Below are positions 3,805-52,810 of a DNA stretch of 64,000 nt, in pieces. Each line of letters opens with the position of its first letter. The first letter of the stretch is position 1. Below the pieces are notes generated by a model. That model saw only the letters and a list, made by a program, of their open reading frames with translations. It ran no database searches and was not told the origin of the DNA. Where the stretch lies: NCBI GenBank assembly GCA_965112155.1, contig OZ218099.1. One strand, given 5' to 3'. Source of the stretch: Podarcis liolepis. Taxonomy: Eukaryota. The position numbers and the translations under genes are program-made.

Positions 3805-4063
3805 GTGAGCTCCCATTGCTTGGCCCCTGCTCCTGCCAACTTAGCAGTTCGAAAGCACGTCAAAGTGCAAGTAGATAAATAGGTACTGCTCCGGCGGAAA
3901 GGTAAACGGCGTTTCTGTGTGCTGCTCTGGTTCGCCAGAAGCGGCTTAGCCATGCTGGCCACATGACCCGGAAGCTGTCAGCCAATAAAGTGAGATGAGT
4001 GCCGCAACCCCAGCGTTGGTCATGACTGGACCTAATGGTCAGGGGTCCCTTTACCTTTACCTT
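3805..4063 (+). mobile_element. 5'-truncated Sauria SINE
   Basis: Colinear with 1983-2341 from GTGAGCTCCC onward; ends in (ACCTTT)n. Confidence 0.9.
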
Positions 4064-4329
4064 ACTACATTTATTATTATATTCATTTCTGCAGTGAGCA
4101 AACGCTTGCTGAACTCTGTATTTCCTGCCCCACTTTAAGTATTATATAAACTGTGTTTCTTATTTATTAATCCAATAATTATTTTCTAGAATGTCTAATT
4201 ATTCAATACACCAGCGTGTCTTTATGTCTCCTAGGAAGCTGAAGGAACAATACATGGAATTCCCACGTGGTCACTGAAACTGACCAGATGAAGACCTCCT
4301 TCTCAACGGTGTCGCTGCATCGTGTAGAT

Positions 4330-5919: not shown

Positions 5920-6447
5920 CTGAAATGTTTTTAAATGTTTTAAACGGTTCTAATTTTGGTTCCTCTGTTTTGTTTTTGTCAGGTTGGTGTTGGTTAAATG
6001 TTTAGTTGGGGTTGGCAATTATTTTAATTTTGGTACAACTGTAAACTGTTTGTTGTTGTTGTTTTCTATTGATTTATTGGTTTTCTATGTTGCTTGCCAA
6101 CCTAGCAGTTCGAAAGCATGTCAAAGAGCAAGTAGATAAATAGGTACCGCTCCAACGGGAAGGTAAACGGCGTTTCCGTGCACTGCTTTGGTTCGCCAGA
6201 AGCGGCTTAGTCATGCTGGCCACAAGACCCAGCTGTACCCCGGCTCCCTTGGCCAATAAAGCGAGATGAGCGTCGCAACCCCAGAGTCGGTCACAACTGG
6301 ACCTAATGGTCAGGGGTCCCTTTACCTTTTACTATGTTGCTTGTATACTAGGATATTTTGTTTTTTAATGTTTGATTGTGTGTTTATATATGTTGTAAGC
6401 CATCCAGAGTGGCTGGGGAAATCCAGCCAGATGGGTGGGAAATAAAT

Positions 6448-6610: not shown

Positions 6611-6725
6611 GGACAAGGGTGGTAGCTCAGTGATAGGGCATCTGCTTTGCTTGCAGAAGGTCCCAGGTTCCATCCCTGGCATCTCCAGGTAGCGCTGTCT
6701 GATATCTTGGAGAGATGCTGCCTGA
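6611..6725 (+). mobile_element. Squam3-like tRNA-derived SINE (partial)
   Basis: TAGCTCAGTGATAGGGCATCTGCTTTGCTTGCAGAAGGTCCCAGGTTCCATCCCTGGCATCTCCAGGT head with A/B boxes. Confidence 0.7.
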
Positions 6726-14479: not shown

Positions 14480-15400
14480 TGTTTACATGCTGTCTTCAGA
14501 CAGCAAACTCGCAGAACAGCTTGCAAGATAATAGAACAAATCCAACGCTGATATAGCTGTTGATGATTAAAGATATGTAAAGTAATACAGCAGAGCACAA
14601 AAATGCAGAGTATCCAAAACCAGCAGAGAACAGTTAAAATCACCAGGTTAAAATCATCTAGCTGACATCCTGGAAGACCTGGGCATATAAAAATGTCTTC
14701 TCTTGGCACTGGAATCGGGCTAGGTGAGCCGCCCTGGGAAGGGCGTTCCAAATGTGGGGGCACCACAGCTGAAAAGGCCCCCTCTCCAATTACCACCCTG
14801 CTACCTTCAGAAGAAGGGGGCTTGAAGAAAAGCCTCAGGTGACAAATGCCAACCGTTGGGGAGGCTCATGTGGAAGGAGGCAGCCCTTTAGGATCATAGA
14901 AAGTTGCCATTAACTGGGTCAAGCCATTGGTCCATCTAGCTCAGCTCTGTCCACACTGATAGGCAGCCGTTCACCAGGGTTTCAGACAGGAGTTTCTGGA
15001 GATGCCAGGGATTGAACCAGGGACTTTCTGCATGCAAAGTAGATTCTTTACCACTGCACTATAGCTTCATTCCCCTTAGAAACCCAGGTCCCCAGCCATT
15101 TAGAGCTTTAAAGGCCAGCACCACCACTTGTGCCCAGAAACTGACTGGCAGCCACTGTTAGCTGGACAAGCAACTTACAGTTTTCTTCATTCATTCATTC
15201 ATTCATTTAATAAAACTTAGGCACTGCTTGATTGTAAGCAACCCTCAATCTTCTTATAGCCAGTCTCAGTTAGCAGCATAGTCACTATATTTTGAAATAA
15301 CTAAAGTTTCTGAGAAGTTTGCAAAGTAGTTGCCTGTGCAGTGCAGTAGTTTAATTTAGAGACTACTGGAACATGAATAACTGTATTTGGGCCAGTAGGG
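14480..15400 (-). mobile_element. Degenerate L2 LINE 3' end, interrupted by a Squam3-like SINE
   Basis: Reverse complement reads CAGTGGCTGCCAGTCAGTTTCTGGGCACAAGTGGTGGTGCTGGCCTTTAAAGCTCTAA (the WLP region of L2 ORF2) and a GEGAFSAVVP-like segment. Boundaries approximate. Confidence 0.6.
14893..15075 (-). mobile_element. Squam3-like SINE
   Basis: CCATTGGTCCATCTAGCTCAG...GGAGATGCCAGGGATTGAACCAGGGACTTTCTGCATGCAAAG is the reverse complement of the head/body at 6611. Confidence 0.75.
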
Positions 15401-24180: not shown

Positions 24181-24386
24181 AAGGTAAATGGCGTTTCCAT
24201 GTGCTCTGGCTTCTGTCACGGTGTTCTGTTGCGCCAGAAGCTGTTTAATCATGCCGGCCACATGATCTGGAAAGCTGTCTGTGGACAAATGCCGGCTCCT
24301 TTGGCCTAAAGTAAGATGACCGCTGCTTCCCATAGTTGCCTTTGACTGGACTTAACCATCCAGGGCTCCTTTACCTTTTTTTTACC
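24181..24386 (+). mobile_element. Older, 5'-truncated Sauria SINE
   Basis: AAGGTAAATGGCGTTTCCATGTGCTCTGG...GACTGGACTTAACC..CTTTACCTTT; more diverged than the other copies. Confidence 0.8.
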
Positions 24387-25192: not shown

Positions 25193-25250
25193 ATGGAAGA
25201 GAAACGGCGAAAGTACTCGATCAGCAGTGATAACTCAGACACCACTGACA
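25193..25250 (+). CDS. JADE2: JADE2 (Jade family PHD finger 2 / PHF15) first coding exon
   Basis: TTTCTTTTGTTACAG|ATG; encodes MEEKRRKYSISSDNSDTTD plus 1 nt, the recognisable JADE2 N-terminus; donor A|GTAAGA; 58 nt, phase 1. Confidence 0.96.
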
Positions 25251-28914: not shown

Positions 28915-29000
28915 GTCAGACAACATCAGCTTCAAGATGCTCCAAAATTCCAAATACAAAATCCGGTTGGTCAAGACAGAAGGAGAAGAAACCCTCAGAG
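28915..29000 (+). CDS. JADE2: JADE2 second coding exon
   Basis: TTTTGTTTTCGTTTGAAG|GT CAG...; continues phase 1: (S)QTTSASRCSKIPNTKSGWSRQKEKKPSE; donor GAG|GTAGGT; 86 nt, ends in phase 0. Confidence 0.95.
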
Positions 29001-29095: not shown

Positions 29096-31825
29096 GTTTA
29101 AATACAAAAAGTAATGTTCTCAAACCTGAAGGTAAGGGCAGCCCTTGACACACCAGCAGGGATCAGAGACACTGGAAGGAAGCCCATATCTCTCTCCTTC
29201 GAAATACATAAACAATTCTAGTGAACTCCCATCTGAAGATGCAGAAAGCACATTAGGTGACTGTCCAGCACCATTTTAGTGCAGGGCCAGAACTCTGCTT
29301 CTCATAACACCTCTCCAGCTAACAGCTGTAGCTGTGGCTAGATCTGGTCCGATGAATTACAGCTATATGATAGTTTAGTTCCCAGTTGAGCTTTGCTAGA
29401 GCTGTCTGTCTAGTTGCTGTCCTTGGTCCTGCAATACCTACTATCTGTTGGCTTTCATTGCACTATTGATCCAGGTAAACCCCTAGTTCATCCCAAACTT
29501 GATTCCAAGACAAATGAAAGCCTCTGCAGACATTCATTCACTGTCATTTGTATTCTGGTTCCACTTTTTGTCTTGATGTGGTAAAACCTTAATTACATGT
29601 TTACTCCTTGATATGCTTACATATGTATATATTTTAATTTTGCACACTGGTGTGGAGCTGTTGGGTAAGCTGTGACCAAGCAGAAGGCATCCAGAGTTGT
29701 GGTATATGACCATCCACAGAAAGACTTGGGGGACGGTCCAGTAAATGGCTTTCCATAGAGCTCACTAAAACCTAGGGCTAGCCTTGAGCATATCGTTTGT
29801 AGATGATGGAATGTTACCATCCATGCAGCACTCATGGATCAGTCTAATGTGTGAATGAGCCTGACACAGTGGGAAATGCTCCAACAGACTTCCATATGGC
29901 TTCCAGTTTCTTTAGCTATTTTAAGACAATAGCTAAATTTGCCTGGATGACGAGTATTGTCAGTAGACCACAGTTTAGAGTTATCCTACATCTCCCAACA
30001 AAAAGCAGTTTGTGTGTGCATTTGGGTGCTGCCAGTTTTAACTACAGCTAAAGATGCAGTGCTGCACTAGTGGCGTTTGGGATGAAGACTCCACATAGTG
30101 CAGGAACGAATGTATTTTATTTGTTTTTTCTAATGTTCATTGGCTGTGCTTCCACTGAAAACTTTGCTTAAGGCAATGCACAATAAAATTAAATGCGCAG
30201 AATAAAAGAAGCAAAACAGCAAACTACAACTCAGCAGAGAACGAAGATCAAATTCTATACTTCAGTTACATTTTTTAGTTTCGCTGCCTGGTACTTGTGG
30301 TGAAGAACAGCTCATTTGACAAGAAAGGTTAGTTATACATATTTCTCTAGGGCCCCAGGAAGTGTGTGACACACAGTACCCAACAGAAGAATCAGATTCC
30401 TCGGAGATGAGGTGAATCACTCATCACAAGCTGAAGGAGAAACAGCCTGGCCCTTTCAAATGACAACTCAGGGTTGGAAAACTGTTCTCTTTGGTTGCCT
30501 GAGGTGTCATTCTCCATTGCTCTAGCAAATACCATTCCTTTTCAAGATACCACGTTTCAGGAATTATGCCTTTGCACAGACTGAGAATACACATTACTGT
30601 AGACTGCAAACATGAATTTTGTTGCCATGTGGGAAGAACTGGCTGTTCATGGTGAACAGGAAAGAAGATATAATGGGTGCTTTTAACACATTTATTTATT
30701 GTGGCTACACCTGTATGTGTGGTTACTGAGATAGAAAGGAATCAAAAGCATATAGACAGGCTTGAATAAAATGGCCTTGTGGAATCTAAAAAACATTCCC
30801 TGTCATAGCGCTGGTGAATCGTCACTAGTGTAAGCATTATTAAATATTTATTTCTAAATTTTAGATTTTTTTTATAAAAAAGTACTTGGAATTAGACAGT
30901 ACTTTCAAGCACTCCACATACAGTGACTTGGATCCCAAGTTGCTCCTCCATTCACACCAGAGAGATGGCAGTTTTTGACTGCACCCCCCATCCCAAATCA
31001 CCCCCAAAGGTTTCACAGTCCCCAGGAGCATATTTTCAGGGGACATCAGAGGAAAGCTGAGACATGAAAGCCCCATGATCGTGAACGCTGTTGTGATCCA
31101 AGCCATTACAATGAAACTCTTACAACAACCCTGCAAGGTGGGTGTGCATTATCAGCCCCGTGTTGTAGATGTGAGTATTGAGGCTGTGAAGCAACCAATG
31201 ACTTGCCTAAAGCTAGACATTAACGGCAGATGTAATACTCTGGGACCTGCTGATTCATAGCTCAGTCTTTTAGCCACTCTGCCACATTGACTCTCCAAGT
31301 GAGTTAAGATGCTGTCTCTGGCACACTAAAAAGCAGCCCTGGATTCTGGAAGGTGTGAGATCCAAGATGAACGACCCTAGGACTGTTCCTCTTGAGGCCG
31401 TGTTCTAGTTCCATCTTTGAGCTGAGATGCCCTTCTTGTTTCCTCTAGATAGAAGCATAGGCAGGAAAGATAAGGAATCAAAGGCATTAGTGCAACATAG
31501 TCATTAGCTAAATCAAGAGTGGTGCTTATTATGAAAGGCTGTGTGACAAGGGATTAGCTATATGCATTTGCAGTGCAACTGGAAAAACGAGCTTCTTTGC
31601 AGAGGAAAAAAACACACCAAGCCTTTTGTCAACACTGAGGTCATTATGCAGCATTATCAGGACACCCAGCAACAAGCCTGAGGCCCGTTCCAAACAGTCA
31701 AGGTAGCTGCCATGTATCTGTGGAGATGGTGAGACTATAGAGTCCTAACATAATATAGGCTTCTGCTTACATATGCGTTAGCAATGTGGTTTACAAACGT
31801 GTGCCATAATGGCTCTCCTTTGTCA

Positions 31826-31829
<4 letters not shown>

Positions 31830-31860
<31 letters not shown>
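31830..31860. repeat. (TA)n microsatellite, left flank of Penelope insertion
   Basis: Direct reading. Confidence 0.95.
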
Positions 31861-31863
<3 letters not shown>

Positions 31864-31912
31864 GGTTTTGGTGTCTTCGGGTGTCTTCCCGTGTAAGAGT
31901 TGGGGTGTCTAG

Positions 31913-31950
31913 GCGACGTTTCGACGAGGTCTCACTCGTCATCTTCAGGC
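31913..31950 (-). ncRNA. Minimal hammerhead ribozyme motif (antisense copy)
   Basis: Exact reverse complement of 33234-33271. Confidence 0.7.
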
Positions 31951-32074
31951 TGGTGCTTTCGGCTTCTTGTTACTGGAACAGAGCAGGATCTCAGTGTTTG
32001 AGTTCCTATAAATACTGTTGAGGGGGTGTGGTGTATAGCCTCAAACGTTCTGGGCAGAGAGGAAGTTCCAGGTT

Positions 32075-32998
32075 ACTCTCATCTCCAGAACCAAACGCCT
32101 GGCTGACAAAGACCACTTGACAACTGAGTTACAGAATCTCTCAAATGTGTTAATCGCCAATGGATACCAGCAAAACAGGGTTACGAAGCTAATCCAAAAA
32201 GAAACACCCCCCAAAAACCAAGACACAGAAGAAAACAATGGCATGGCCCTCCTTCCTTATATCAAGGGTACTACAGATAAAATTAGCAAAATCCTCCATA
32301 AACACAATATCAAAACAGCCTTTTGCACCAACCAAAAAATAGCCAATATCCTCAGAAACCCCAAAGATAAAATCCAGTTGGAAAACCAAGGGGTCTATGA
32401 AATACCCTGCAAAGTCTGCCCAGCCACGTACATTGGACAAACAAACAGACGAATAAATGCACGTATCGCAGAACACAAGAATGCCGTCAAAAAAGAAGAA
32501 AAAACTTCCTCTCTTTTCCAACACATGAAAGAAACAGGACACGAAATTAATTTTGCAGATTCCAAATTGCTCTTTAACATGGAACATCACCACAAGAGAA
32601 TAATCATGGAAGCCATCGAGATAGAGAAACACCCTCACAACATGAACAAGCGTGACGACACGTCCCGCCTGCCAGACATCTGGAAATTAGCCCTCCCCAC
32701 AAAAACCGACACCAGAACCAGAGGCACACAGAACGCCATCACCAATCAACCACACCAGACCCAAACCCAGACCCTCTCCACAGATAAATTACAGACACCA
32801 TCCAGTAGCCAAACCATAGTGGCACCTCCGGATGCTGCACCCCCCTGCAATCCCTACACAGATCTGGCTGGCACAGGGCACAAAACCACAGCTCGCCCCT
32901 ATACACGAAGCCAAGCCAGAGCACAACTAAGTGCAGTACAGCCATCTTCTCAGAAAAACTCTTCACAAGCTCAAGAGGTCAAGACACGAAAGCTTTAG
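32075..32998 (+). pseudogene. Penelope ORF C-terminal part: RT thumb end, linker and GIY-YIG endonuclease (RT core missing)
   Basis: Open frame TLISRTKRLADKDHLTTELQNLSNVLIANGY..LPYIKGTTDKISKIL..GVYEIPCKVCPATYIGQTNRRINARIAEH..FQHMKETGH..RIIMEAIEI..NMN with GVY/YIG, Arg, His, Glu, Asn and CCHH residues. First in-frame ATG is at 32243. Confidence 0.92.
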
Positions 32999-33233
32999 CA
33001 ACTAATCCACACCTAATGACCCACCTAAGTGGTACTCAGAATATCACTCAAGAAATCACTCAAGATATCCCTCAAGTAATTAAGGAACAAAAGAAGAAAA
33101 GGCACACTAACCTGGGAACTTCCTCTCTGCCCAGAACGTTTGAGGCTATACACCACACCCCCTCAACAGTATTTATAGGAACTCAAACACTGAGATCCTG
33201 CTCTGTTCCAGTAACAAGAAGCCGAAAGCACCA

Positions 33234-33271
33234 GCCTGAAGATGACGAGTGAGACCTCGTCGAAACGTCGC
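33234..33271 (+). ncRNA. Minimal type I hammerhead ribozyme motif of the Penelope pLTR
   Basis: GC-CUGAAGA-U-GACGAG-ugagac-CUCGUC-GAAAC-GUC^-GC: conserved core, 6-bp stem II, palindromic ACGU in place of stem III, predicted cleavage after C33269. Stem I has only 2 clear pairs. Confidence 0.75.
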
Positions 33272-33356
33272 CTAGACACCCCAACTCTTACACGGGAAGA
33301 CACCCGAAGACACCAAAACCTGCATTCCTGTACCCGTGAAAATCTACGAAAGCATG

Positions 33357-33402
<46 letters not shown>
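33357..33402. repeat. (TA)8(CA)15 compound microsatellite, right flank of Penelope insertion
   Basis: Direct reading. Confidence 0.95.
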
Positions 33403-33405
<3 letters not shown>

Positions 33406-33622
33406 TTTGACAGCCTGAAGATGTATTTGAGTGGTGATAAAGCATAGTGAAATCGTAGTATGGATGGAATTGCAAGGCTTTTCACTGTTCACCTGTGTCT
33501 GTTCCTCTTATTCAGGGGCTGGCTAGTGACATATACCAAGGGAATATGTATGTAAAGAAGTACAACCAAAGGAATTGGGGAATACCCTTCTTTTGGCTGC
33601 CACAGCACAGGTTAGCCAGATA

Positions 33623-33844
33623 CAGTGGTACCTCGCGTTACAGACGCTTCAGGTTACAGACTCCACCAACCCAGAAATAGTACCTTGGGCTAAGAACTTT
33701 GCTTCAGGATGAGAACAGAAATTGCGCGGCGGCGGGAGGCCCCATTAGCTAAAGCGGCACCTCGGGTTAAGAACAGTTTCAGGTTAAGAACAGACCTCCA
33801 GAACGAAGTAAGTTCTTAACCCGAGTACTAAAAACAAAAGACTG
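33623..33844. mobile_element. Tigger/pogo-like MITE
   Basis: TA|CAGTGGTACCTCG left TIR; right end AACCCGAGTAC...ACTG|TA interrupted by an A-rich insert; internal GGTTAAGAAC repeats. Confidence 0.8.
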
Positions 33845-35885: not shown

Positions 35886-36089
35886 TCATGTGTAACATCA
35901 ATTCATGGATTCCATTTGCACCCATCTTCCTTTCCACCACATGCATCCATAAGGGAATGCCTTGCAGAATGGTAGTTTCTCCCAAAGTATAAATGCAAGT
36001 AGACCTGAAAATGATCTGCCTCTACTCAAAGTTTGAGGACTGTAAATTGTAGTCCTGTAGGGCCAGTGAGTAGAGGCTGATCATTTTCA

Positions 36090-36459
36090 GGGACACGGGT
36101 GGCACTGTGGTCTAAACCACTGAGCCTAGGGCTTGCTGATCAGAAGGTCAGTGGTTCGAATCCCCGCAATGGGGTGAGCTCCCGTTGCGCGGTCCCAGCT
36201 CCTGCCAACCTAGCAGTTTGAAAGCACGTCAAAGTGCAAGTAGATAAATAGGTACCGCTCCGGCGGGAAGGTAAACGGCGTTTCTGTGCAATGCTCTGGT
36301 TTCACCAGAAGCGGCTTAGTCATGCTGGCCACATGACCCAGAAAAACTGTCTGCGGACAAACGTCGGCTCCCTCGGCCAGTAAAGTGAGATGAGCACCAC
36401 AACCCCAGAGTCATCCGTGACTGGACTTAACTGTCAGGGGTCCTTTACCTTTACCTTTT
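36090..36459 (+). mobile_element. Full-length Sauria SINE
   Basis: GGGACACGGGTGGCACTGTGG head, B box GGTTCGAATCC, (ACCTTT)n tail; TSD TAGGGCCAGTGA at 36058-36069 and 36460-36471. Confidence 0.92.
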
Positions 36460-38469
36460 TAGGGCCAGTGAACACACTTGGTGAACACACTTGATCCTGA
36501 GATGTGCTCACTACTAAGTACAGGCTATGCCCGATTTGTGCATGGTCGTGTTCTGGGTTATTGTGCATGACAGTGGAGCATGCATAAGCCCGCTCTGCCC
36601 CATTAAGCCCCATTCCACTCCCTTTCCTGGTTACCTCTGGGTTGCCGTGATGCGTGCGTGCACAGTTGTGCACATTCTAAATGTGTGTGAATTGGTCCTT
36701 GCCTGTAAACTGTTTGATTTAGTATGGAATATACTGACCACAACACCCATGGAACAAAAAAACCCATAGAGTGTGATTCACTTAAAGATCCTGCATAAGG
36801 GATTCCACTTGTGCCATGGAGTCCCCCCCACCCACAGTCCCCTTCTGAATTTGCCTCTGGGGAACACTGGGAGAACCCCCAGAACAGCATGCAGGGGGAG
36901 GAGCAATTGTTCTGTCTGGCCAGCTGAAAATTTTGTGCAGACAGACTGATCGCCTCAGCTTGACATTGAATTCCACCCATAACATTATGTTTATACTGAA
37001 GGAGTGTTATACTGACCTTCAGGGCAGATTAATCAGAACAGATGTTTCAGATTGGAGTGTTATGCTTTGGTCAGTTACTTTGGAGTAATCTCAGTGGCTT
37101 CAGTATACGTACTCTATGCTAAAGATTCTGCAAATCATAGCCGTAGGCTCATTTTAATACTCATGCAATAGCATGAACGGAGCATAAACAATTGTTCCAA
37201 CACATTAATGAGCCTTCTCAGTGTGAGAACTACACAGCCTGCATCAGTGTCAGATTGTTCCTTTATGGGCAAAGTCTACAGCTGATAAAGTATTCAAATT
37301 AAGCAAATTTATGCAAAACTGTCTGATCTGCTAATTAAAAGCGGTTCTAAGCAAGACTTCCTTCAGTTTACTTAAGATGTCTAAAATGAAAATGATCACT
37401 TCTCCTAAACATAGTTGCTTGGAAAGTAAATCTCACTGTTTCAGTAGAACTTTCAAGTAAGTGTGTTTTGGATCAGGGCTTAGAGTCTCATTTCAGAATA
37501 TGGCAGTGCCATGGATTGGCTAGAAATAATGATACTTTGAGAAGTGGCTGATTGGTTCTGCATTGATTGATTATACAGTTTCTTTTAGATTCTGCCAGCC
37601 TTCAAACCATTCATGAAGTTAGTGCCCAGTTGACTTACTCTTGCTTGGTAATTCCAGAGCACAGTCCATTAGGGTCTAACCTCATTGGATTTTAATATTC
37701 TAGATTGCATTTTCTATGTCTCATAAAAATAATATAACATCTAGTTGAACTTTTTTTTAAAAAGAGCACTTCATATTTGGGCAGGTATAGCCATAGGACG
37801 GCTTCCAACTCTATGACTCTATAAGTTGCTTATGAAAAGCTAGACGGCAGCCTTTATGATATTTGTTTATGATTATTCTTGTGATCTCAGGTTCACACAA
37901 TCAAAGTATTTCCTTGGCCTTGAACCGAAACCTGTGATTGGTTGTTTGAGCTCTGAGAAGTAAAAGAGTCATGCTGGTTGGGTTATCTTTTGTTATGGCT
38001 GTGGCTAATATATGGGGCTATTGCTTCCTATTGATTCAAGGCTTTTAATTCTTCAGAAGTGTTTAAAAAGAATACCAACCCACTTTCCTAAGTAGGCAAT
38101 AAATAAGAACCTTTGCAAATAGCATGTTGAAACACACTTGTGGTGATTTGATTCAGCCTCTGCCAGTCTCGGGAGCTCAGAGGAGTGGAAATGACATATA
38201 TTTCCATTGAGCTGATTTTTAATGACAGTATTTATCATGTTAAAGCAGTAGCCGATGCAGAACCAATAACTCAGAAGGACAGATTGCCAGTCCAGCACCT
38301 GCAGCACTTCCTAATGCAGGGTTTCTTACTGGCTTTGGAAGTTATAGATGTTTGCTGTAGGTTCTTTGGGAGCGGGAACTTTTCTCTGGGTGAATGAATT
38401 CTCCATTCACAAACTGTGTGAGGCAAGAAGAGTTCCGAATGGATGACACAGAGCTGATGAATGGCACCA

Positions 38470-52652: not shown

Positions 52653-52810
52653 GTTTTTCGTACCGATCTGATAACAGCTATGAAAATCCCAGATTCTTAC
52701 CAACTGAGCCCAGATGAGTACTACATCCTTGCTGATCCCTGGAGGCAAGAGTGGGAGAAAGGTGTTCAGGTGCCAGCAAATACAGAAACAATCCCTGAAC
52801 CAGTGGTTAG
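52653..52810 (+). CDS. JADE2: JADE2 third coding exon (start of the conserved EPL1/EPC-N-like region)
   Basis: CTCATCTTCTTCTCCAG|GTT; [52 protein letters not shown](R); donor AG|GTAAGC; 158 nt, phase 0 to 2. Confidence 0.97.

Follow-up and report, generated by a model that had tools for sequence, protein, structure and literature searches.

A minimal hammerhead motif of a young Penelope/Poseidon-type retroelement, predicted to pair with an inverted copy of itself, in a JADE-family intron of Podarcis liolepis

Results

The host gene

The window, meaning the whole stretch of 64,000 nucleotides of Podarcis liolepis DNA analyzed here (contig OZ218099.1 of assembly GCA_965112155.1), carries on its plus strand coding exon 1 of the host gene at 25193-25250 and the second and third coding exons at 28915-29000 and 52653-52810, the latter two being the 5' and 3' neighbours of the host intron (29001-52652). 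These exons were located by short peptide motifs and their phases are consistent. Taken by itself, the third coding exon had no relevant match among solved structures or Pfam families, so gene identity was taken from downstream exons, which match the PZP domain of the JADE1 and JADE3 structures (E 4.5e-33 and 1.9e-16) and at the level of sequence show the host gene to be of the JADE family. In an EPL1 family search of the genome the window was not matched. The site had been described in preliminary form as intron 3 of JADE2. The family is borne out by the PZP matches, and JADE2 in particular is our assumption from the N-terminal peptide. The ATG lies directly 3' of a splice acceptor, which requires at least one non-coding exon before it, and the host intron is intron 3 if there is exactly one. 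A CpG-rich stretch lies at about 7.5-10 kb of the window.

Elsewhere in the window, a tRNA-like Rfam match at 6616-6687 (41.1 bits), to which a copy in opposite orientation near 14961-15061 is related, is probably a tRNA-derived SINE head. Dispersed SINE-like repeats at 1979-2345, 3805-4067, 6066-6338, 24272-24379, 36088-36462 and 33620-33825 are ones that we take to resemble squamate Sauria SINEs.

The insertion and its inverted arm

The host intron holds a truncated retroelement insertion (31860-33355) between a (TA)n run at its left end (31830-31860) and a (TA)n(CA)n run at its right end (33356-33403), with no separate target-site duplication visible at these TA-run ends. Its direct, 5'-truncated part (32075-33355, plus strand) comprises the 3' end of an ORF, a 3' UTR and a pLTR and is identical to a full-length copy (L032) at all but 2 of 1,280 nt, so the insertion is very recent. 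The ORF remnant (32075-32998, plus strand) is the 3' third of the ORF and retains a GIY-YIG domain (PF01541, E 4.6e-4, 20.9 bits, below the 22.6 cut-off), the RT core and start being missing. At the opposite end lies an inverted 5' arm (31859-32075, minus strand), the reverse complement of 33115-33325, with 211 nt (31859-32069) that are 100% complementary to the pLTR and a match that extends to 33108 with one gap. A tail of 29-30 nt (33326-33355, plus strand; +85 to +113/114 from the AUG described below) is present at the direct end only and absent from the inverted arm.

Within the 211-nt arm there is a second, identical hammerhead on the minus strand (31913-31950, core span 31948-31915), antisense in the JADE pre-mRNA. 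Neither the arm nor this second motif appeared in the preliminary description, which had treated the sense orientation of the plus-strand motif as significant. Since both strands carry a copy, sense orientation in the host intron is nearly automatic and thus uninformative; both strands were likewise represented in 33 of 44 insertion clusters sampled among the 100 first-listed exact copies.

Contigs over the insertion site provided no joint across it, X15 ending at the TA runs and X17 and X19 being without left flank. A cryptic exon (32954-33075, AG...GT, 122 nt, in frame) is mechanically possible inside the insertion.

The hammerhead motif

The plus-strand motif at 33234-33271 is a minimal type I hammerhead motif whose letters and layout agree with those first described. 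Conserved boxes were read at 33236-33242 (CUGAAGA, C3-A9), 33262-33265 (GAAA) and 33266-33269 (C-G-U-C17), with 33268-33269 as the UH of the core, and the layout agrees with the earlier prediction of a scissile position after C33269. Stem II has 6 bp (GACGAG 33244-33249 with CUCGUC 33256-33261) and a 6-nt loop, and includes the G10.1-C11.1 pair (G33244-C33261). Stem I consists of 2 contiguous bp (GC 33234-33235 with GC 33270-33271), the third position being an A.C mismatch. Stem III is the loop-less ACGU palindrome at 33265-33268, whose closure within one strand is impossible; the earlier assignment to the minimal type I hammerheads of Penelope pLTRs, with a palindrome needing a dimer, agrees with the family traits and the pLTR location. 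The extra U noted previously is present (U33243, between positions 9 and 10.1) and acquires a different reading: together with A9 and G10.1 it forms an AUG (33242-33244, plus strand) that, from tandem copies and the PAc layout considered below, is the start codon of a 906-aa ORF. In the window copy this AUG opens just an ORF stub that continues into the TA tail.

Local folding of the motif recovered the 6-bp stem II; stems I and III were absent. The folding z of the 38-mer was -0.72, so its stability alone is not unusual, and closing stem I costs energy (-7.5 vs -8.6 kcal/mol). In the local fold, a small GUC/GAC hairpin (33267-33277) spans the cut site together with the 3' strand of stem I, and in this model it might be an off state that protein could open. 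By eye, stem I might be lengthened by two pairs (AG/CU) on the far side of an AC-rich bulge of 5 nt (33226-33235 with 33270-33274). An AC-rich stem-loop is predicted 3' of the hammerhead (33291-33337, plus strand) and by analogy appears to match the described region of reverse transcription start in PAc (PMC11167929). Rfam hammerhead models, proposed earlier as a check, gave zero matches at gathering score in the window and zero at E<=10 in 32800-33700; these models likely miss the motif because helix III is absent.

Genomic copies and the carrier family

The exact 44-mer of the motif has 5,674 copies in the 1.57-Gb genome against 0 for its reversed control, and a loose minimal-hammerhead pattern gave 20,977 matches against 200 for the reversed control; with both counts far above their controls, the motif is not a product of chance. 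When the core was left free and flanks only were specified, 5,450 copies matched, and an identical 34-nt core was found in 98 of the 100 first-listed copies chosen by flanks alone, in keeping with the earlier claim that the core is conserved among family copies. This uniformity reflects the youth of the family, not selection at the JADE locus.

The AUG inside the core opens a 906-aa ORF in three of four fetched regions (L031:2428-5148, L032:2166-4886 and L034:1761-4481), with RVT_1 at residues 358-536 (E 2.8e-15) and GIY-YIG at 705-744 (E 0.0011, under the cut-off). The linker joining RT to EN, inspected by eye, holds at most one Cys and has no Zn-finger-like motif, a trait separating Penelope/Poseidon from Neptune and Nematis. 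Two of these regions (L031 and L032) show a tandem period of 2,964 nt, a pLTR-forming arrangement. Judged by its predicted protein, the carrier is a Penelope/Poseidon-type EN+ retrotransposon with one ORF encoding an RT and, at the C terminus, a GIY-YIG domain, and the three intact ORFs and 5,674 identical hammerheads point to a recent or ongoing burst. A non-LTR retrozyme was also considered and rejected, the unit being 2,964 nt long and coding; non-LTR retrozymes are, in the available text of their description, short non-coding tandem units with hammerheads (10.64898/2026.07.22.740005).

An opposite-strand copy lay no more than 6 kb away for 87 of the 100 first-listed exact copies, a sample that is the head of a list of 5,674 and comes wholly from the beginning of one contig. 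In a tally made by eye with a query that favoured long ends, 48 distinct copies (L001-L030) ended at +113/114 (30 copies), +84 (14), near +75 (one) or in the ORF (three). Reverse transcription would thus begin immediately 3' of the hammerhead (+84, +113), and nearly every insertion would carry the hammerhead as a result. Covariation among genomic copies had been suggested as a means of defining stem I. Three patterns for diverged ACGU-type hammerheads returned 2, 5 and 19 matches in the genome. As most of these were chance matches or carried point mutations of this same family, covariation within the family cannot define stem I.

A second very abundant minimal-hammerhead family, family B (L039-L046, L049-L056, L061-L062; L095, L100), was observed, with a 4-bp stem I (GUAU/AUAC), a palindromic stem II and an AGCU palindrome. 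Just 5' of the motif, several of its copies show a TATA-like box together with a TTTCAG that resembles an intron acceptor. When the 906-aa ORF was compared by tblastn with 18 family-B loci zero matches were obtained, and family B probably represents the terminus of a different PLE family.

Comparison with described PLE hammerheads and insertions

The motif was compared with PAc (Poseidon_Ac) of Anolis carolinensis (Frangieh et al. 2024), read by eye from the template printed in the Methods of PMC11167929; statements on PAc here refer to the available sections of that paper. In PAc the ORF begins at stem II and the cut falls 26 nt after the start codon. The two families have in common an AUG at A9, the extra U and G10.1, a 6-bp stem II, an identical GAAACGUC, the lack of a loop III, a short stem I in the same register and a cut, predicted for the window family, about 25-26 nt past the AUG, as well as the AC-rich stem-loop, ends near +113, AT-rich targets and, among the pile-ups listed here, the lack of RNA-seq ends at the cut. 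The end positions +84 and +113/114 match the PAc scheme, where reverse transcription starts within the AC-rich stem-loop and two start sites define the tail (PMC11167929). Stem I has 2 contiguous pairs here and 3 (CCU/AGG) in PAc, the third pair being A.C here, and compensatory changes are found at both pairs of the window motif relative to PAc (C-G vs U-A, G-C vs C-G). Unlike in PAc, stem II and its loop have a different sequence and the window copy is truncated, with an inverted arm. In PAc too, read by eye, a distal CUC/GAG helix is preceded by an AC-rich gap of a similar kind, which may be compared with the possible stem I extension noted above.

Minimal hammerheads (min-HHRs) of metazoan PLEs are characterized, in the available text of Cervera and De la Pena 2014 (PMC4209133), by an extra nucleotide, a G10.1-C11.1 pair and a palindrome. 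The window motif shares with them the core (CUGANGA, GAAA, UH), the extra nucleotide between 9 and 10.1, G10.1-C11.1, the palindromic 15.2-16.2, the lack of a loop III where min-HHRs have none or a tiny one, a long helix II (more than 4 bp) beside a short helix I, the pLTR location, mostly truncated copies and opposite-strand pairs. Its family is nearly invariant, like that of D. virilis and unlike the variable families printed in the same text. The 2-bp helix I stands at the lower limit of the lengths printed there, 4-5 bp being typical of min-HHRs, and a 2-bp helix I is printed for D. virilis Penelope (PMC4209133). Stem I had been regarded as so weak that it might define a variant or a dead fold. 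With 2 bp known in D. virilis and 3 bp in the same register with compensatory changes in PAc, the sequence places it at the short end of the known range, not in a new fold, and the motif is a real, ordinary PLE hammerhead of a known kind.

The layout of the insertion also has described counterparts. As in EN+ PLE insertions (Craig et al. 2021; PMC8557442, available sections), there is 5' truncation, an adjacent inverted 5'-truncated copy, a tail at one end only and a microsatellite target with no clear duplication. The tail of 29-30 nt is at the low end of the 30-40 given there for EN+ PLEs, with no substantive difference.

Predicted folding of the host pre-mRNA

In an equilibrium model of the whole insert (31800-33450), the MFE structure contained 210 of 211 arm pairs. 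Sampled hammerhead bases were paired to the arm at p>0.997, with stem II at p about 0, and freeing stem II and the core would cost 60.9 kcal/mol, subject to the caveats that stem II may form before arm invasion and that editing could loosen the duplex. The intermolecular ACGU helix contributes only 3.1 kcal/mol, and unconstrained cofolding of two copies did not yield the double-hammerhead fold. When 204 kb around the site were scanned, a second plus-strand copy of the hammerhead family was absent, so no cis dimer is on offer; two family-B motifs were found far off, one on the minus strand inside the gene and one on the plus strand past the last exon identified.

RNA reads and editing

Four RNA runs (X21-X24) from a related organism, with most reads 95-99% alike, were searched, 6-12% of each run being read. 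One element unit (L032:1000-3950) drew 557-756 reads per run, showing that the family is transcribed in the related organism, and the reads include joints of an element's end to its start, and ends bearing a TA tail at +84, +113 and +118. Unique flanks of the window locus drew zero RNA reads, and the locus's own transcript was not observed. Among the six listed of nine end pile-ups on the element in the four runs, none was at the cut. RNA-seq ends thus give cleavage no support and cannot exclude it; the PAc hammerhead cuts only with protein and likewise yields no RNA-seq ends at the cut (PMC11167929). A pile-up of 6 molecules on the window locus in X24, ending at 31912 and mapping to 33272, 3 nt from the cut, was rejected as a cleavage product because the molecules run 3 nt past the scissile bond. 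Depth in the same direction at 31897 was only 3, so these molecules lie above 31912 and are not the 5' product.

Changes of the A>G and T>C types exceeded G>A and C>T on the element in all four runs (58:17, 69:20, 34:22 and 51:22), the excess on the element alone being mainly T>C and the X23 rate of A>G per A lying below that of G>A per G (20/1109 vs 13/430). On the window stretch, which includes the high-copy SINE-like repeat at 33620-33825, the same ratio was 136:41 in X24 RNA and 19:32, 11:28 and 8:23 in three genome-sized contig sets (X24 vs X19, Fisher p 3e-7), a comparison of RNA and DNA from different individuals. One X24 loose end, examined by eye, differs from the element by T>C only, given a fixed variant at 2211. 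The excess suggests A-to-I (ADAR) editing of PLE hairpins. In the available text of two reports, Penelope is massively edited in a lizard (PMC5625713) and PLE hairpins undergo ADAR editing in X. tropicalis (PMC10636886).

Discussion

Taken on equilibrium-fold and analogy arguments, the intron copy is very probably a passenger locked by its own inverted arm, with cutting of host RNA unlikely. During transcription of the JADE pre-mRNA the antisense arm would be made about 1 kb ahead of the sense hammerhead and would then bury it in duplex. The insert hairpin would be a likely ADAR substrate and would be removed with the spliced intron. Any activity of the ribozyme would be confined to transcripts of tandem source elements, where it would work in dimers joined by ACGU, probably assisted by the element protein as in PAc, the cut falling 28 nt into the ORF.

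The preliminary description had proposed instead that the hammerhead could be activated in trans in the host pre-mRNA. In its fuller form, family transcripts or the element protein would activate the intronic hammerhead, the JADE pre-mRNA would be cut and output lowered where the element is expressed. The core is indeed intact and identical to that of source elements, the family is transcribed in the related organism at the read numbers given above, and a single-hammerhead PAc RNA underwent cutting at 500 nM upon addition of protein (PMC11167929). Yet the predicted 210-bp duplex lock, at 60.9 kcal/mol, is set against a dimer interface of about 3 kcal/mol, and no end pile-up was seen at the cut among those listed. 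Ending at +113, the copy also falls short of the 172 nt at the start of the ORF that PAc required as template and in which its authors suppose a protein-binding site (PMC11167929), and editing that opened the duplex would presumably strike core adenosines as well, so that activation in trans appears very unlikely. A related scheme would have the element protein, wherever this very active family is expressed, bind nascent intronic copies before arm closure, bridge them to family RNA via ACGU and cut host pre-mRNAs such as that of JADE2 at many loci, the inverted arm and ADAR serving to switch it off; we regard it as highly improbable. Domesticated intronic ribozymes, such as CPEB3 and the amniote intronic hammerhead motifs HH9/HH10 in regulatory genes, are old, single-locus and conserved. 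That the window motif is another of these, with a host role at JADE2, is scarcely conceivable: the sole point for it is the location in an intron of a chromatin gene, the CPEB3 ribozyme too lying in an intron of a regulatory gene (PMC10919898, available text), and against it the copy departs from a full-length one at only 2 of 1,280 nt and is hence very recent, and is one of 5,674 identical motifs instead of a single locus. Unlike CPEB3 and HH9/HH10, it is a new, multicopy insertion that is predicted to be locked.

The hammerhead of the whole family might be degenerate, its 2-bp stem I too weak and its core kept by overlap with the ORF start and first codons. The energy cost of closing just 2 contiguous stem I pairs and the GUC/GAC hairpin that may cover the cut site locally would fit this, as would the finding that the PAc hammerhead is dispensable for insertion in vitro, HHR mutants being without effect (PMC11167929). 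It nevertheless seems unlikely, because the intact CUGAAG sits 5' of the AUG and is no part of the ORF, because stem I pairs, stem II and palindrome vary together across the window family, family B and PAc as far as its printed template shows, and because the 2-bp helix I of D. virilis, in the available text, cut when helix III was extended (PMC4209133). A degenerate hammerhead would in any case be compatible with the claim that the intron copy is a locked passenger.

For that locked passenger the consequences are modest, since it is one of thousands, its motif and its insertion layout have both been described before, and it has little significance alone. Of wider relevance is the position of the predicted cut, which, lying 28 nt inside the ORF, would detach the start codon and suggests a protein-triggered feedback on translation; no such proposal was found in those parts of the PLE hammerhead literature that were examined. 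The very young family with its intact 906-aa ORFs offers a second reptile Poseidon-type system for PLE hammerhead function, and, because an antisense arm is part of most insertions, PLE hammerheads in introns probably do no harm.
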